A DNA stretch of 64,000 nucleotides from an uncultured Defluviitaleaceae bacterium (lineage in GTDB: Bacteria; Bacillota; Clostridia; Lachnospirales; WRBF01): assembly GCA_964492715.1 (NCBI GenBank), contig CAZBLK010000002.1, forward strand, positions 66,896 to 130,895, read 5' to 3'. The notes under the pieces are model-generated. The model worked only from the letters and a program-made list of their open reading frames with translations. It ran no database searches and was not told the DNA's origin. Shown here piece after piece: positions 3,427-36,575 of the stretch. Each line of letters starts with the position of its first letter. Positions within the stretch are counted from its first letter, which is position 1. A program made the position numbers and the translations under genes.

Positions 3427-3531
3427 TATAGCAATTCCAGTTTTTAACGATAATGGCAGAGGGAAGCCAAACGCCTAGTCGTTTACCGTTTTGACCAATA
3501 GACAATGTCGATTAAAAAAGGAATTGCTATA
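3427..3531. repeat. TIR-bounded small element carrying the conserved 65-nt core (copy 1 of 2)
   Basis: 12-bp inverted termini TATAGCAATTCC / GGAATTGCTATA. The core at 3440-3505 (..GCAGAGGGAAGCCAAACGCCTAGTCG..) recurs at 33422-33488. Confidence 0.6.
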
Positions 3532-30206: not shown

Positions 30207-30313
30207 TGTTAAGAAAGCTGAATATAGCAATTTGAGTTTTTGTAGTCACCAATCCATTGATTTTTTATGGCAAACTGGTAAACATCTTTATCAAATTTAT
30301 TTTTGACAACTAC

Positions 30314-30366
30314 TTGACAATACACCTACACTGTGTTAATGTAACTATACAAACAACATGTAGGTG
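30314..30366 (+). promoter_or_regulatory. blaI-like promoter with overlapping TACA/TGTA operator dyads
   Basis: TTGACA (30314-30319), 17-nt spacer, TAATGT (30337-30342). Dyads CACCTACA (30323-30330) / TGTAGGTG (30359-30366) and TGTAactaTACA (30340-30351). Confidence 0.5.
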
Positions 30367-30387
30367 AAGTTGAAATGGAGGTGTGGT

Positions 30388-30771
30388 ATGAGTATAATTC
30401 AACAAATATCAGATTCGGAGCTTGAAATTATGAGGGTTGTTTGGCAAAACGGCTCGGCGTTGTTTGCGCAAATTATGGCTGCGTTAAGTGAAAAAGAAAT
30501 GAACTGGAAGCCTAATACAGTTTTAACTTTTTTGGCTAGACTTAACGAAAAAGGGTTTTTAAAAATTGTTAAGCATGGAAGGCTAAACGAGTACGTTGCG
30601 CTTATTTCAGAACAGCAGTACCTTGCAGGGCAAACGCAAACATTTATTCACAAAGTTTATGGGGGAAATGCAAAAGGGCTTGTTGCTTCACTTTTAAAGC
30701 TTGACTACATTTCGTCAAACGACATTGACGAGCTAAAACAATTTTGGGAGGGTGCTGACATAAATGAATAA
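30388..30771 (+). CDS. BlaI/MecI/CopY family winged-helix repressor
   Basis: 127 aa from the ATG at 30388, with a GGAGGTG RBS. SDSELEIMRVVW...TVLTFLARLNEKGFL pattern. Overlaps the downstream M56 gene by 8 nt. Confidence 0.85.
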   Translation: MSIIQQISDSELEIMRVVWQNGSALFAQIMAALSEKEMNWKPNTVLTFLARLNEKGFLKIVKHGRLNEYVALISEQQYLAGQTQTFIHKVYGGNAKGLVASLLKLDYISSNDIDELKQFWEGADINE

Positions 30772-32911
30772 TTTACTAAGTTTGTATTTGTCGCTTTCTG
30801 TTCAAGGCGGAATTATTGCGCTTCTCATTTTTGCCGTGAAAAAGTTGTTTAAAGACATGCTTTCTATGACTTGGCAGTATTATATTTGGCTTGTTGTGCT
30901 TGTTCGGCTTTTAGTTCCGTTTTCTGTTGAGGTTGGTTTGCCTTTTGAGGCTGCACCGTTTGTAGGTGTGAACAATGTTGGAGTAAATAATTTTACATGG
31001 GTAAACCGTGATACCAAGATAAATTATATTGATACTGAAGTGGAAGAAACAATCGTTAATACTTCAGTTGAAGCTGAACAAAAAAACAAGAAAAATAGCA
31101 GCAGTATATCCACTTATTTAACTGAAATTAAGAGTAGCCTTTGGATTTTTTGGCTTGTCATTGCAGCAATGCTTCTTGTTAGAAAAGTTACAAGCTATAA
31201 AAGTTTTGTTAGGTATATAAAGGCTGGGGCGTCAAAAGTTGATAGCCCGTTTATACTTGACACGTACTACAAAGCTTTTGATGAGGCTGGTGTTAAGCCG
31301 ATTGGGCTTTATATAAACAAGCTTGTTTCTTCGCCAATGCTTGTTGGGTTGTTTCGCCCGATAATTGTTATTCCGCAAGTGCAAATGGGCGAAAAAGAGC
31401 TTTTAAACATTTTTAACCATGAACTAATGCACTTTAAACGTTTTGACATTTTTTACAAATGGCTTGGGCAAATTGCACTTTGCTTACATTGGTTTAACCC
31501 TGTTGTTTATTTTGTAAACAAAGAAATTGGCAAATGCTGTGAGCTTTCTTGTGATGAAGCTATAATAAAAAAGCTTGACAGAGAAGGGAAAAAAGGTTAC
31601 GGCGATACACTTTTAGCGACAATTCAGTTTAATGGAAGCTACGGAGACTCTGTTGCTTCAGTTACTTTAAACGAGGACGCAAGCCTTCTTAGAGAAAGGC
31701 TTGGCGCAATTATGAAGTTTAAAAAGAGTTCTCGGCTTGTTGTTTTTTGCTCTTTGGTTGTTGCTGCTTTGTTTGTTTTTGGAGCGGCTGTAAAAGGTGT
31801 TTATGCAAAGCCTGTTGTTGGGACAACAGTTGAAGCTGTTAAAGTACCTCAAGCTGCAACTAGCAATTCTGCTTCAGAAAGTTATTCTGGGGCGGCAAAC
31901 AACACTGCGCCAGTTGCTACAGAGCAGAAGTTTAATTACCCTACAACTTATATCAATAACAGAGAAAGAACAACTCTGACGAAGGGATTTTTTATCAACA
32001 AATACTTTGTTTCATTAATGATATTTGACCAATCAATATCTAAAGATTTGGCAACAAAGCTTTCAAATTTTACAACAATTAGAGGTTTTAATGTTGCTTT
32101 TAATAATAACACAAAAAGCTTTGCAACAAATGCAGATGTGCTTGAAGTTTTAGAGGCTGTTCCTTTAGACAGAGAGTTTGAAGAATGGAAGTTGTCTATG
32201 CAAGAGCCGATTTTACTAGTTGCAAAAGTTGACGGTCCGTATAATGAAACAGCAGATGAATTGGCGCAAAAGTTTTACGAGGAAGGCAACCTACCTAACT
32301 TTTCAAACGTTGTGCCGTATATAGGTGAGGAAAAGCTGGCTGGGCTTTTAAAGCGTGCATACAAAGACAAAGACTTATCGTCGTTTAGTATTTTGTCTGG
32401 GTATGTTACAAATGAAGCTTTTATTGAGCAGCTTGCGCAGACGGCATATGATGAAAATTACATAAATTTCTTTTCGGTGTTTGCCTATAGGTTGGGTGCT
32501 GCAAAAAAAATAGAACTTGCAGAAACGGCTTACAATGACAAAAACATAAACCTTTTTTCAGTGCTGGCGCAATATTTAAGTAATCCAAAGAAGGCAGAGC
32601 TTGCACAAAGGGCATATGACGAGAAAAACACAAGCTTCTTCTCGGTTCTTTCAAATAGCTTGAACCAGGAAAAGCTTGCTGAATTTTTAAGGCATTCGTA
32701 TAACGAAAAAAACACGACATTTTTCAGCATAATGGCAGAAAAAATTTCCGACCAAGCGTTAATTGACGAACTTGGCGAAAATGCGTACAATGATAAGCAA
32801 GTTAGCTTTCTTGCAATTATTTCTGGCGAATTGAGCAGTGCAAAGCACGAAGAACTTTTAAGCCGTGCAATAAAGGAGAAACAAACTTCTTTGATGAATG
32901 TACTGGAATAG
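30764..32911 (+). CDS. BlaR1-like M56 metallopeptidase signal transducer with a novel repeat-containing extracytoplasmic domain
   Basis: 715-aa ORF. TM helices, the zinc motif HELMHFKR, a further TM (LVVFCSLVVAALFVFGAAV), then about 350 aa ending in roughly seven 29-aa repeats (AYxxKNxxFFSVLxxxLxxxxxxELAxx). No penicillin-binding motif seen. Confidence 0.8.
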   Translation: MNNLLSLYLSLSVQGGIIALLIFAVKKLFKDMLSMTWQYYIWLVVLVRLLVPFSVEVGLPFEAAPFVGVNNVGVNNFTWVNRDTKINYIDTEVEETIVNTSVEAEQKNKKNSSSISTYLTEIKSSLWIFWLVIAAMLLVRKVTSYKSFVRYIKAGASKVDSPFILDTYYKAFDEAGVKPIGLYINKLVSSPMLVGLFRPIIVIPQVQMGEKELLNIFNHELMHFKRFDIFYKWLGQIALCLHWFNPVVYFVNKEIGKCCELSCDEAIIKKLDREGKKGYGDTLLATIQFNGSYGDSVASVTLNEDASLLRERLGAIMKFKKSSRLVVFCSLVVAALFVFGAAVKGVYAKPVVGTTVEAVKVPQAATSNSASESYSGAANNTAPVATEQKFNYPTTYINNRERTTLTKGFFINKYFVSLMIFDQSISKDLATKLSNFTTIRGFNVAFNNNTKSFATNADVLEVLEAVPLDREFEEWKLSMQEPILLVAKVDGPYNETADELAQKFYEEGNLPNFSNVVPYIGEEKLAGLLKRAYKDKDLSSFSILSGYVTNEAFIEQLAQTAYDENYINFFSVFAYRLGAAKKIELAETAYNDKNINLFSVLAQYLSNPKKAELAQRAYDEKNTSFFSVLSNSLNQEKLAEFLRHSYNEKNTTFFSIMAEKISDQALIDELGENAYNDKQVSFLAIISGELSSAKHEELLSRAIKEKQTSLMNVLE

Positions 32912-33089: not shown

Positions 33090-33421
33090 ATAGAGTGGTT
33101 TTTAATATTTTCTTGTTTAATAATGCTTGCATTGGGGGTGGTGGGCTGCACAAAAAGTGCACGCCTGAACATATGATTAAAAACAAAGCGTACACATATG
33201 ACGGAAAAAAACTTGAAAATGTTGTTTCTTATTCACCTTACGATGAGGAGTACAACAAAAGTCTAAAAGAAAAGTAAAAGCTTGAACAACTGAAGAAAAA
33301 AACTTCGATAATGTTAGTTCCTAATGGTTCTAAAGAGCCGAAAATATTCCAAATAAAAAACCCAATTAATGTTGACGTTTATACTAATTCGGCTTCAGGG
33401 TTTTACACAGTAGCAATTTAG
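33069..33421 (+). pseudogene. Decayed small lipoprotein gene (frameshift plus in-frame stop)
   Basis: The frame starting at ATG 33069 gives MDILNRLIEWFLIFSCLIMLALGVVGC, a signal peptide with lipobox, then stops at 33174-33176. The reading continues in another frame (TPEHMIKNKAYTYDGKKLENVVSYSPYDEEYNKSLKEK), hits TAA at 33275-33277, and stays open in that frame to TAG at 33419-33421. Confidence 0.4.
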
Positions 33422-33488
33422 ATTTTTAATGATATTAGCAGAGGGAAGCCAGACGCCTAGTCGCTTGGTGTTTTTTACCGATAGATAA
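33422..33488. repeat. Conserved 65-nt element (copy 2 of 2)
   Basis: ATTTTTAATGATATTAGCAGAGGGAAGCCAGACGCCTAGTCGCTTGGTGTTTTTTACCGATAGATAA aligns with 3440-3505. Confidence 0.6.
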
Positions 33489-33574
33489 ATTAAAACAGAG
33501 AGCTAAAAAAGGCTTTCTTTTTTAATTGGTAATTTTTATGATATAATTGTATCTATATAACAATTTAAGTTTTT

Positions 33575-33651
33575 ATGGTCACCAATCAATTTTACGGCTA
33601 AAATATCTAGTGCTTCAATGATTTTTTGACGCAAAATTGATTGGTGACCAT
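33575..33651. repeat. Long perfect inverted repeat upstream of the nitroreductase gene
   Basis: 19-bp arms ATGGTCACCAATCAATTTT (33575-33593) and AAAATTGATTGGTGACCAT (33633-33651) with a 39-nt spacer. A related half-site, GTCACCAATCCATTGATT, lies at 30245-30262. Confidence 0.7.
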
Positions 33652-34426: not shown

Positions 34427-34592
34427 AATTAGAAATTCTAGGAAACAACGATAGAAGCGAATTGTTTTTACAACGTTTGAACATTATAATACAATGAAGC
34501 ATATATCCATTATTTTTGGAATTGATGTAGTGGTTTATTATGTATATTAGTGTCAAAATTTTAAAAAAAAATTACAAAGTTCGACAAATATA

Positions 34593-34622
34593 TTGACACA
34601 AAGGCACTATGTAAAGTATATT
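34593..34622 (+). promoter_or_regulatory. Promoter of the type III TA locus
   Basis: TTGACA (34593-34598), 18-nt spacer, TATATT (34617-34622). Confidence 0.55.
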
Positions 34623-34649
34623 ATTAGTGTAAATGTAAATAATTTTATT

Positions 34650-34762
34650 AGGCACTTGTGCCTCTTAGTTCGCTTGTCGTATGCGACTAATAAATAGGCG
34701 ACTTGCTTGTGATTGTCGCTTGCCTGTTGCGACTAATAAGATACAGGCTGGAAATGATTTTT
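34650..34762 (+). ncRNA. Candidate type III antitoxin RNA: 2.3 tandem repeats of 46-47 nt (CptI/ToxI-like)
   Basis: R1 (34650-34695): AGGCACTTGTGCCTCTTAGTTCGCTTGTCGTATGCGACTAATAAAT. R2 (34696-34742): AGGCGACTTGCTTGTGATTGTCGCTTGCCTGTTGCGACTAATAAGAT. A partial R3 follows. The repeats lie between a promoter and a terminator, immediately 5' of the toxin gene. Confidence 0.7.
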
Positions 34763-34787
34763 GCCCCTCGTAAGAGGGGTTTTTTTA
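34763..34787 (+). terminator. Intrinsic terminator separating the antitoxin repeats from the toxin ORF
   Basis: CCCCTC-gtaa-GAGGGG followed by T7, ending 13 nt before the toxin ATG and overlapping the approach to its GGAG RBS. Confidence 0.8.
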
Positions 34788-34799
34788 CAGGAGAACGTT

Positions 34800-35270
34800 A
34801 TGAAAATTACTCATTGTGGTTTATATAATGTTAGTGATGAATATTTTGCAAAATTCAAATGTGAATTTTTTACAGAAAACAAGGAAGAAATGCGCCCGTA
34901 CTATTTAGCCCTAACTGATTTAGATGGAATTATTTGGTTAATTCCTCTTAGTTCTCAAGCAAATTCATACAGGCAAAAAATTGAAAAAGATGAATTAAAG
35001 TATGGAGAATGCTTGTTTTACCATATCGGAAAAATTGCTGACAAAGAGAGAGTCTTTTTAATTGGTCAAATCATTCCTATAACACCTAAGTACATAAAAA
35101 AGGAATTTACAATAAGTAGTTTGCATTATGTTGTTCGAGATGAAAAACTTGTTAAGTCTATACGTAAAAAGGCAAATAAGTATTTGAGGTTTGTGGTAGA
35201 TGGCAGGTTGCGCCCAACTATTAATATTTATAAATTCAAAGAAGTGCTTCTGGCAGATGTGCAACAATAA
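34800..35270 (+). CDS. ToxN/AbiQ/CptN-superfamily endoribonuclease toxin (type III TA)
   Basis: 156 aa from the ATG at 34800, with a GGAG RBS. N-terminal MKITHCGLYNVSDEYFAKF and RPYYLALTDLDGIIWLIPLSSQ resemble the ToxN pattern (..YIEYL.., ..GHKYLAPLTSPK). Size and locus architecture match type III toxins. The local DNA looks AT-rich by eye. Confidence 0.7.
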   Translation: MKITHCGLYNVSDEYFAKFKCEFFTENKEEMRPYYLALTDLDGIIWLIPLSSQANSYRQKIEKDELKYGECLFYHIGKIADKERVFLIGQIIPITPKYIKKEFTISSLHYVVRDEKLVKSIRKKANKYLRFVVDGRLRPTINIYKFKEVLLADVQQ

Positions 35271-35274
35271 AAAA

Positions 35275-35290
35275 GCCGCCCTAGGGCGGC
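35275..35290. terminator. Bidirectional hairpin between the toxin gene and gdh
   Basis: GCCGCC-ctag-GGCGGC flanked by A-run and T-run sequence on both sides. Confidence 0.6.
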
Positions 35291-35315
35291 ATAAATTTTT
35301 AAATCAACTGACGAT

Positions 35316-36575
35316 TTACGGGAAAATCCCTCTAATCTTTTTAGCAGCAACAAGCCTTTTCAAAGCAACCATATAAGCGCCAGTTCTATAAGTCACATTG
35401 TTTTCTTGAACTGTAGCGTGAACCTCGTCAAACGCCTTTTTAATAATAATTTCAAGACGCTTGTTAACTTCATCTTCTTCCCACATGAAAGATTGTTCGT
35501 TTTGAACCCACTCAAAGTAAGAAACTACAACACCGCCAGCGTTTGCCAAAATGTCAGGCATAATGTAAACACCCTTATCAGCAAGAATTTGGTCAGCTTC
35601 AAAAGAAGTTGGGCCGTTTGCGCCCTCAACAATTACTTTTGCTTTAACGTTTGGTGCAACCTCTGCTGTAATTTGGTTTTCCAAAGCGGCTGGAATTAAA
35701 AGGTCACATTCGCATGTAAGTGTTTCCGTGTTTGAAATGTGGCTTACGCCGTCTTTTTCGTAGCTGTCAAAAAACTTACCAGTGTTTTTGTAGTAAGAAG
35801 CAAGCTCTTCGGCGTCAAGACCGTCAGCACAGTATAAACCGCCAGAAACGTCACTCATTGCAACAATTTTGCAGCCAAGCTTTTGCAAAAGAATTGCAGC
35901 AACACCGCCAACATTGCCGCTGCCTTGTACAGCAACACGAAGACCTTCAAGCTCCATGCCTAAATGGTTTAAAATATGTGTAGCAGTAAGCATTACACCA
36001 CGCCCAGTAGCTTCTACACGACCAAGAGAACCACCAATTTCAATTGGCTTTCCTGTAACAATTGCAGGAACAGAGTAGCCTTTGAACATGCTGTATGTAT
36101 CCATAAACCAAGCCATAATTTCGCCGTTTGTGTTTACATCTGGTGCAGGAATGTCTTGCTCTGGCCCAATTAGTGGCAGAATGCTTGCAACGTAACGCCT
36201 TGTAAGACGGCGCAATTCATTTTTTGAAAGCTTTGAAGGGTCAACTGTAATTCCGCCCTTGCCGCCGCCGTAAGGAATGTTAACAACTGCACATTTAAAA
36301 GACATCCATGCGGCAAGTGCCTTAACCTCGTCCATGTTTACGTCTTGGTGGTACCTTACGCCGCCCTTGTAAGGGCCACGTGTGCTTGAATGCTGAATTC
36401 TATAGCCTTGGAAAACTTTAGTTGAACCGTCGTCCATTTCCACAGGGATAGAAACTTTAAGCTCTCTTTCAGGGTATTTAAAAGTGATATAGTCATTTTC
36501 CGAAAGACCAAGCTTTTTTGCAGCCATGTCCATAACGTCAAGCATGTTTTGATATGGATTGTAATTATTAGACAT
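35316..36575 (-). CDS. gdh: NAD(P)-dependent glutamate dehydrogenase
   Basis: 419 aa from the ATG at 36575. GPYKGGVRYH, the catalytic-Lys motif PYGGGKGG and the dinucleotide fold VQGSGNVG. Confidence 0.9.
   Translation of the reverse strand: MSNNYNPYQNMLDVMDMAAKKLGLSENDYITFKYPERELKVSIPVEMDDGSTKVFQGYRIQHSSTRGPYKGGVRYHQDVNMDEVKALAAWMSFKCAVVNIPYGGGKGGITVDPSKLSKNELRRLTRRYVASILPLIGPEQDIPAPDVNTNGEIMAWFMDTYSMFKGYSVPAIVTGKPIEIGGSLGRVEATGRGVMLTATHILNHLGMELEGLRVAVQGSGNVGGVAAILLQKLGCKIVAMSDVSGGLYCADGLDAEELASYYKNTGKFFDSYEKDGVSHISNTETLTCECDLLIPAALENQITAEVAPNVKAKVIVEGANGPTSFEADQILADKGVYIMPDILANAGGVVVSYFEWVQNEQSFMWEEDEVNKRLEIIIKKAFDEVHATVQENNVTYRTGAYMVALKRLVAAKKIRGIFP

Follow-up and report, generated by a model that had tools for sequence, protein, structure and literature searches.

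The window analyzed here, a stretch of 64,000 nucleotides (nt) of contig CAZBLK010000002.1 from an uncultured Defluviitaleaceae bacterium, carries on its plus strand, at positions 34593-35270, a compact locus in which a promoter is followed by a short RNA with two tandem pseudoknots, a rho-independent terminator and a gene coding for a protein of 156 amino acids. This locus is very probably an intact chromosomal type III toxin-antitoxin module of the CptIN family, with the RNA (CptI) as the antitoxin and the protein (CptN) as the endoribonuclease toxin. The order of the elements (promoter, repeat RNA, terminator, toxin gene) is present in the window and is kept in its relatives. An initial annotation of the same DNA had placed here a promoter, repeats, a terminator, a ribosome-binding site and an open reading frame (ORF) of 156 amino acids, and all of them are present at those positions, although the repeats are weak. 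Its assignment to a type III system, cptIN-like rather than toxIN, agrees with the toxin model, the match to the structure 4RMO, the element order and the unit size. The locus is otherwise an ordinary member of the family; what is unusual about it is that it belongs to a sub-group in which neither antitoxin RNA unit is a copy of the other.

The toxin gene, cptN, occupies positions 34800-35270 (plus strand, stop codon included). Type III families are defined by toxin sequence, and for cptIN repeats of 40-48 nt in 1.9-3.4 copies have been published (PMC3401426). The window protein scores 114.2 bits (E = 4.7e-33) against the NCBIfam equivalog model NF047359, "type III toxin-antitoxin system CptIN family toxin", whose cutoff is 90, and 14.6 bits against the TenpIN model NF047358, below the cutoff of 90. 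The Pfam ToxN_toxin and AbiQ models, to which the initial annotation had looked for identification, were of no help, as the 156-residue protein holds no Pfam domain: at E <= 1 only a chance match to YfkB was returned, and nothing from the ToxN model. The match to the PADLOC AbiQ model is weak (20 bits, E = 1.4e-4). In a sequence search of the Protein Data Bank the sole real match was the CptN chain of 4RMO, from Eubacterium rectale (E = 7.5e-21, 35% identity). The CptN fold is Kid-like, a twisted core of beta-sheet with helices around it. A fold was predicted with AlphaFold2 (predicted local distance difference test 76, predicted template modelling score 0.71), and Foldseek retrieved with it 4RMO_A first (template modelling score, TM, 0.80; E = 5e-10), AbiQ second (4GLK, TM 0.61) and then MazF/CcdB. 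Judged from the predicted fold, this appears to be the hierarchy expected of a type III toxin, and the likeness to AbiQ would be one of superfamily level only.

A profile-free search of 1.8 billion cluster representatives returned 468 representatives related to the window toxin at E <= 1e-3. The window ORF is full length, and none of the 48 columns invariant among its closest relatives is altered in it. Residues Ser51 and Ser52, in an IPLSS motif, and Arg32, in an RPYY motif, are invariant or nearly so in both clades of the family described below, and in the alignment they fit the Ser-Ser/Thr-Arg triad described for E. rectale CptN. The triad arginine was provisionally assigned to Arg32 because the residue that follows Ser-Ser varies across the family (Q, K, R, N or H). 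Gene callers had been expected to report only a hypothetical protein at this locus; a caller based on NCBIfam would name the toxin. Distant homologues on plasmids (28-39% identity) are nonetheless listed as "hypothetical protein" in the PLSDB gene table. Homologues lie on ten plasmids, seven of them from Clostridium perfringens and one each from Megamonas, Fusobacterium and Virgibacillus; the 2012 survey, with 33 cptIN entries, recorded no cptIN borne on a plasmid (PMC3401426). The PHROG family phrog_33519, filed under "unknown function", matches the window CptN (E = 4.9e-44) and could be named. A tblastn search of GenBank phage records with the window toxin at E <= 1e-5 found no homologue.

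Related loci were gathered from six GTDB species genomes, eighty metagenome contigs and three IMG/VR entries. In a quick neighbour-joining tree of the toxins, built without bootstrap, an E. rectale-type clade and a second clade that includes the window, called here clade A, are reciprocally monophyletic; mean toxin identity is 47% within clade A and 56% within the E. rectale-type clade, versus 34% between the two. The E. rectale-type toxins are 26-41% identical to that of the window and are preceded by two near-identical repeats of 45-46 nt (three in one truncated locus), with an ungapped self-identity of 82-100% in most loci (75% in locus L048), with UUGAAAG or UUGUAAG between them in most cases. 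In four of these loci (L051, L053, L065 and L084), which belong to more distant family members, the toxin gene is preceded by the exact E. rectale CptI sequence, taken from the primer table of PMC4627078. The other toxins of clade A are 39-58% identical to that of the window, and a two-unit RNA lies upstream in all 25 further distinct clade-A loci. Their units recur with a period of 46-47 nt and a self-identity of 43-82% (median about 57%); a nearly invariant linker, CUUGCUUnUGAUU, connects them, UUGAAA usually comes after the second unit, and the first unit is without a conserved 5' tail.

In the window the antitoxin RNA comprises two H-type pseudoknots on the plus strand. Unit 1, delimited by comparative alignment and by pair counts, spans 34669-34702. 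Its stem 1 (S1) brings together 34669-34673 and 34683-34687, with four pairs formed in the window; its stem 2 (S2) pairs GUCGU at 34676-34680 with GCGAC at 34698-34702, and its A-rich second loop (L2), UAAUAAAUAG, lies at 34688-34697. Unit 2 spans 34715-34748, and all 11 of its pairs are formed in the window: S1 pairs GUCGC at 34715-34719 with GCGAC at 34729-34733, and S2 pairs GCCUGU at 34722-34727 with ACAGGC at 34743-34748. Its L2, UAAUAAGAU, at 34734-34742, is 9 nt long, the same length as in E. rectale CptI. The linker between the units, UUGCUUGUGAUU (34703-34714, plus strand), serves unit 1 as its 3' tail and unit 2 as its 5' tail, and corresponds to the clade consensus given above, whose columns are nearly invariant in the alignment. 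Unit 2 is followed by the 3' tail UGGAAAU (34749-34755, plus strand); G-A-A occurs here in 18/26 related loci, many of which have UUGAAA(G).

The pseudoknots were evaluated on a structure-blind MAFFT alignment (A2) of 26 distinct clade-A sequences, the window and 25 others. The results showed standard pairs in 93.6% of the 545 pair cells and both-sided, compensatory changes in 17 of the 21 pairs. None of 500 shuffled alignments reached any of the five measures used, and control helices in which the 3' partners were slid by 1-3 columns were paired to only 29-52%. S1 of unit 1 is 91.5% paired, with compensatory changes in four of five pairs, and S2 of the same unit is 99.2% paired, with such changes in all five; in unit 2, S1 is 86.2% paired and S2 96.8%, the latter with compensatory changes in all six pairs. 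Both units covary with similar strength and are, therefore, both under selection for the fold. When the 5' strand of the unit 1 S2 was set against the 3' strand of the unit 2 S2, 65% of the cells were paired, a value that comes from a common G-C-C start, and no covariation was found; hence, each locus keeps its two S2 helices distinct. Inside stem 1, at pairs 5-22 and 54-72 of A2, a C.A opposition recurs in loci with GCCGC...GCGAC (L003, L007, L008, L012, L014 and L017, among others), and nine of the 26 cells are unpaired at pair 54-72; the opposition may be a protonated C-A wobble or may reflect another register.

Seen as DNA, the two units are poor repeats. The initial annotation counted about 2.3 tandem repeats of 46-47 nt, of which the period is real; the repeats are degenerate, though, and exactly two units are complete. 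What had been read as the start of the first repeat (AGGCAC) lies in a leader hairpin at 34650-34663, and ACAGGC, the supposed partial third repeat, forms the 3' strand of S2 in unit 2. The sole clean direct repeat block has 24 nt at 83% identity (34670-34693 and 34716-34739, a spacing of 46 nt), and the best ungapped self-match over 44 nt has 25 identical positions (57%). Tandem Repeats Finder found nothing in the window with three parameter sets, including the settings of the 2012 survey (2 7 7; 2 3 5). From the window alone the repeats would be plausible but unproven; they are taken as above chance because the same two-unit RNA is conserved 5' of every related toxin gene fetched. With the 2012 survey settings the program detected the repeats of none of 25 clade-A loci by default and of four when relaxed, versus 17 and 20, respectively, of 20 E. 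rectale-type loci. Detectability by a repeat finder is a discovery heuristic and not a biological property. The suggestion that repeat length and copy number fit cptIN holds, since two units of 46-47 nt fall inside the published ranges. A scan of the entire window against Rfam at gathering thresholds, and one of the surroundings of the locus at E <= 10, matched no family; weak Rfam matches such as STnc280 were rejected, as they reflect the terminator only.

Regarding the origin of the unlike units, L031, the earliest-branching clade-A locus in the neighbour-joining tree, has two near-identical units, and its sisters L029 and L030 are single-unit loci, which suggests that the divergence of the units arose within clade A. 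L029 and L030 have one pseudoknot where L031, otherwise of nearly the same sequence, has two, an apparent copy-number polymorphism.

The signals that surround the RNA were called by consensus matching in the case of the promoter and the terminator. A putative sigma-70-type promoter lies at 34593-34622 (plus strand), with the -35 box TTGACA at 34593-34598, a spacer of 18 nt and the -10 box TATATT at 34617-34622. It has 11 of 12 consensus positions and is the best-scoring site of the region, and transcription would start at about 34629-34631; boxes like TTGACA/TATAAT are found at a similar spot 5' of the RNA in most relatives. The leader then forms, in both the minimum free energy and the centroid folds, a stem-loop at 34650-34663 (plus strand), with AGGCA at 34650-34654 paired to UGCCU at 34659-34663 across a loop of 4 nt, and this hairpin lies outside both pseudoknots. 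A stem-loop soon after the -10 box is usual in clade-A leaders (z < -1.5 relative to shuffles in 17 of 23) and may act as a stabilizer of the 5' end. The E. rectale-type loci have, instead of the leader stem-loop, a UUGAAAG-type site immediately 5' of the first repeat.

The rho-independent terminator, at 34763-34786 (plus strand), consists of the stem GCCCCTC/GAGGGGT (34763-34780), the loop GTAA and a run of seven T residues (34780-34786); three terminator-like sites were found in 1.1 kb, versus 0.3 expected from shuffles. A G+C-rich hairpin between unit 2 and the ribosome-binding site was detected by a strict ungapped search in 24 of the 26 clade-A loci and by eye in the other two. The gap from the T-run to the ATG at 34800 is 13 nt, and it holds the ribosome-binding site GGAG (34790-34793, plus strand), 6 nt 5' of the ATG; a similar motif is present in 22 of the 26 clade-A loci. 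As the initial annotation remarked, the mechanical ORF list fuses the terminator into the reading frame, giving an ORF of 169 amino acids with a TTG start (34761-35270). Alignments with the five closest homologues begin at the ATG at 34800, and Met1 is invariant among them. A small ORF within the RNA (34703-34828, 41 amino acids, TTG start) was rejected, as it crosses the terminator and lies in a region whose evolution is one of base-pair compensation.

Comparison with the CptIN system of E. rectale (4RMO; PMC4627078) reveals a general likeness. Both systems are chromosomal and have two units, of 46-47 nt in the window and of 45 nt in E. rectale, and the toxins share 35% identity, a predicted fold with TM 0.80 and the catalytic Ser-Ser and Arg. 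The elements of the pseudoknot follow in the same order, with an S1 of 5 bp, an S2 of 5-6 bp, a joint of 1-2 nt and an A-rich L2 of 9-10 nt, and many clade-A units have AUAUAAAU in L2 and UUGAAAG after S2. In E. rectale CptI a single repeat suffices for antitoxicity, which is abolished by the changes A29U and deltaU30 (PMC4627078); A29 and U30 align by position with A and U in both window units. The systems differ in that the self-match of the units, ungapped, is 57% in the window and 100% in E. rectale, each window unit having its own stem 2 sequence, in the linker (CUUGCUUnUGAUU in the clade of the window, UUGAAAGUUU in E. rectale) and in the first loop, of 2 nt in the window and 1 nt in E. 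rectale. In the toxin, Ser85 is replaced by Arg84 and Tyr104 by Phe103, and a clade-specific Lys60 takes the place of Ile.

Non-identical units have a precedent in TenpIN (PMC12283969), in which two imperfect tandem units were also missed by Tandem Repeats Finder and each unit can still form a pseudoknot with an A-rich stretch. TenpIN differs from the window system in its toxin family (the TenpIN model scores far below its cutoff on the window toxin, as given above) and in that the tenpI pseudoknots come from prediction tools and manual inspection, whereas those of the window clade have the covariation of 26 loci. In that report of 2025 the toxI and cptI repeats were described as nearly identical and those of tenpI as not, and the question was raised whether both unlike units can function (PMC12283969). 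With ToxIN of Pectobacterium atrosepticum and AbiQ of Lactococcus lactis the window system shares a Kid/MazF-like core of the toxin (AbiQ 4GLK, TM 0.61) and the general type III logic, in which the antitoxin is a repeat RNA, the terminator attenuates, and the toxin is an endoribonuclease that processes and binds its own antitoxin. ToxI, by contrast, is a repeat of 36 nt present in 5.5 copies, and its triplex pseudoknots form part of a heterohexamer. ToxIN and AbiQ have both been shown to cause abortive infection, and no CptIN has.

By analogy with these systems, a mechanism can be proposed for the window locus. The constitutive-looking promoter would produce a short RNA with the leader hairpin, the two tandem H-type pseudoknots and the strong terminator. 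Most transcripts would end at the terminator, yielding an excess of antitoxin RNA, and rare read-through would provide the cptN messenger. CptN, a predicted endoribonuclease of 156 amino acids with a Kid/MazF-like core, would cut the precursor in its single-stranded tails, as its homology with the E. rectale complex suggests, and would stay on the pseudoknots with the active site occupied, in a closed inactive ring in which two proteins are bridged by two RNAs. Should the supply of antitoxin fail, by transcription shut-off, loss of the locus or possibly phage infection, the RNA would decay, and the freed CptN would cleave cellular RNAs and arrest growth. Attenuation, processing sites, stoichiometry, toxicity and its neutralization, trigger and role would all follow the characterized relatives in this scheme. 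The cleavage site of E. rectale CptI is UUGA^AAG (PMC4627078), the caret marking the cut. By position, the site between unit 1 and unit 2 would be UUGC^UU (34706/34707), and a likely CptN site after unit 2 would be UGGA^AAU (34752/34753), which resembles UUGA^AAG; a processed unit 2 would then comprise 34707-34752, that is, 46 nt. In this family the toxin is expected to bring its RNA to unit length and to leave a 2',3'-cyclic phosphate. Loci of the E. rectale-type clade differ at the scissile position, where A, U or C is found. Among them, the four with UUGUAAG or UCGUAAG junctions (L034, L044, L060 and L067) all have Asn at the position of E. rectale Ser85, while loci with UUGAAAG mostly have Ser there, in a sample that is small and phylogenetically non-independent; the aligned sequences seem to indicate that toxin and cleavage site co-vary, as Rao et al. 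proposed.

As to the role of the module, the defence against phages by abortive infection that the initial annotation put forward holds for toxIN, AbiQ and tenpIN; those cptIN loci that have been tested gave plasmid stabilization only and no protection against phages (PMC3401426, PMC4627078, PMC5086642). Abortive infection by CptIN is, then, a possibility and not a trait of the family. The sole hints of it, both indirect, are the position of some clade members in prophage lysogeny modules and the match of the toxin to phrog_33519.

Several observations weigh against the assignment of the locus to an intact CptIN module. The DNA repeats of the window fail the tandem-repeat criterion that was used to define the cptIN family, and unit 1 of the window has U opposite C at the outer position of S1. 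The AlphaFold2 model, built from an alignment of six sequences, is of moderate confidence, and the other four models scored lower. The toxin residues that in E. rectale read the scissile adenine are changed (Ser85 to Arg84 and Tyr104 to Phe103, as noted), and the region of E. rectale Asp81 aligns ambiguously with the window toxin. Moreover, the cleaved A of E. rectale is replaced by C in the linker (by C or U across clade A), and processing between the units is therefore uncertain. Of the features that define CptIN, toxin homology, predicted fold, catalytic residues, pseudoknot units of the proper size and number, and an intervening terminator were found. Among the clade-A loci, Arg occupies the Ser85 position in 20 of 26, and position 103 is Phe in 14 and Tyr in 10; Asp81, Ser85 and Tyr104 belong to the E. 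rectale enzyme in particular and are not defining residues of the family.

It is conceivable, if rather doubtful, that within a CptIN module the two pseudoknots are functionally non-equivalent, either because one of them is the true inhibitor or because they act as a joined pair that closes an asymmetric ring with two proteins. In the first variant the inhibitor would most likely be unit 2, which lies between the conserved linker and UGGA^AAU, leaving unit 1 as a scaffold or decoy; in the second the units would be covalently joined through an uncleaved linker. This is what the low identity of the units within a locus could indicate (43-82%, versus 82-100% in the E. rectale-type clade, both ungapped), together with a nearly invariant linker in which C or U takes the place of the scissile A while the site after unit 2 is mostly G-A-A, with the lack of a conserved 5' tail on unit 1 and with the altered toxin residues that read the scissile base. 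The compensatory covariation, however, is similar in both units, so both are selected for the fold; the scissile position also varies among A, U and C in the E. rectale-type clade, so that C by itself does not mean an uncleaved site; and L031, the first branch of clade A in the tree, has near-identical units. Equally tentative is the proposal that the locus stands for a CptIN sub-family of its own, whose antitoxin, two unlike pseudoknots with orthogonal stem 2 helices and a conserved linker between them, would form an asymmetric complex with CptN. If it were true, one active site would hold the linker, perhaps as an uncleaved pseudo-substrate, and the other the 3' GA^AA site. Such an organization is absent from the solved type III complexes, and it would give a comparative answer to the question of whether both non-identical tenpIN repeats function.

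That the locus is a decaying remnant, in which diverged repeats reflect lost function and the toxin is inactive, is very improbable. The degenerate repeats, the presence of Phe103 and Arg84 in place of the active-site residues described in E. rectale, and the position of the locus as a lone small insert amid housekeeping genes could be read in this way. Against it, the layout is maintained with compensatory changes over 26 loci whose toxins are 39-58% identical to that of the window, a sign of purifying selection and not of decay; the ORF is full length with its 48 invariant columns retained; promoter, terminator and ribosome-binding site are all strong; and Arg84 and Phe/Tyr103 are clade-wide states. 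The notion that the structured RNA is a cis-acting leader of the ORF, an attenuator or riboswitch, instead of a trans-acting antitoxin can practically be discarded, for although the RNA occupies the 5' region of the ORF transcript, has a terminator at its end and matches no Rfam family, its motifs and topology are homologous to those of E. rectale CptI, whose complex is solved and whose antitoxicity in trans is shown, and that exact CptI lies 5' of the more distant family members L051, L053, L065 and L084. An intact CptIN module is, hence, the reading retained here. The family is a known one, and the novelty is modest and at the level of the clade, namely the layout of the antitoxin with its unlike units and conserved linker.

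The neighbourhood of the module in the window is of housekeeping character. Upstream lie, in order, genes for DegV, RadC, a chemoreceptor, BlaI/BlaR1-like proteins and a nitroreductase, the latter followed by cptIN; downstream lie a convergent glutamate dehydrogenase gene, Maf, a PucR-like regulator, FtsE/FtsX and an M23 peptidase. No integrase or transposase match was found among the neighbouring ORFs scanned. A perfect palindrome of 16 nt, GCCGCCCTAGGGCGGC (35275-35290, no strand assigned), G+C-rich and with T-runs on both strands, has the sequence features of a bidirectional terminator that would be common to cptN and the convergent glutamate dehydrogenase gene. Look-ups of exact proteins found the same gene arrangement in one place only. 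The nearest homologues of the nitroreductase are at most 75% identical, those with a named source being mostly from Clostridia, and on three contigs carrying such homologues no synteny with the window was found. At 30364-32911 a gene for a BlaI/MecI-type repressor (Penicillinase_R) precedes, with an overlap of 8 nt, one for a BlaR1-type M56 sensor-peptidase; this is an ordinary two-gene regulatory pair.

The initial annotation had set the locus in an AT-rich islet adjoining a miniature inverted-repeat transposable element (MITE). The G+C fraction is indeed 0.30-0.35 over 34450-35350, versus 0.43-0.47 in two flanking genes, but other intergenic stretches are equally AT-rich. Interspersed repeats and a palindrome at 33411-33651 are probably what was taken for the MITE, and they do not adjoin the locus, as they lie about 950 nt upstream of the promoter. 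These short repeats are located upstream of the nitroreductase gene: 33411-33488 resembles 3429-3505 (79% over 78 nt), and 33554-33602 resembles both 1-49 on the minus strand (84%) and 30222-30258 (86%). The imperfect palindrome, of 77 nt, occupies 33575-33651 and has perfect arms of 19 nt.

Some other members of the clade have a different setting. In Christensenella sp. Marseille-P2438 (locus L003, 1397-4643, the same as L087 on an IMG/VR contig) CptIN is placed between a CI/LexA-like repressor and a phage integrase, and in L089 (415-4497) between an integrase with HicB and an ImmA-like M78 peptidase. Both loci sit in prophage lysogeny modules.

For the window, a hypothetical ORF and an "empty" intergenic stretch become a defined toxin-antitoxin module with exact RNA coordinates. 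For the family, the pseudoknot structure of CptI, known until now from one crystal structure, gains strong comparative support that reaches a diverged clade. Screens based on repeat finders, as used in the founding survey of type III systems, miss a whole clade of CptIN. Non-identical antitoxin units occur, moreover, in cptIN too and not just in tenpIN, and in cptIN both units are selected for the fold. Finally, the prophage-borne members of the clade make a role of CptIN in phage-phage or phage-host conflict worth testing.

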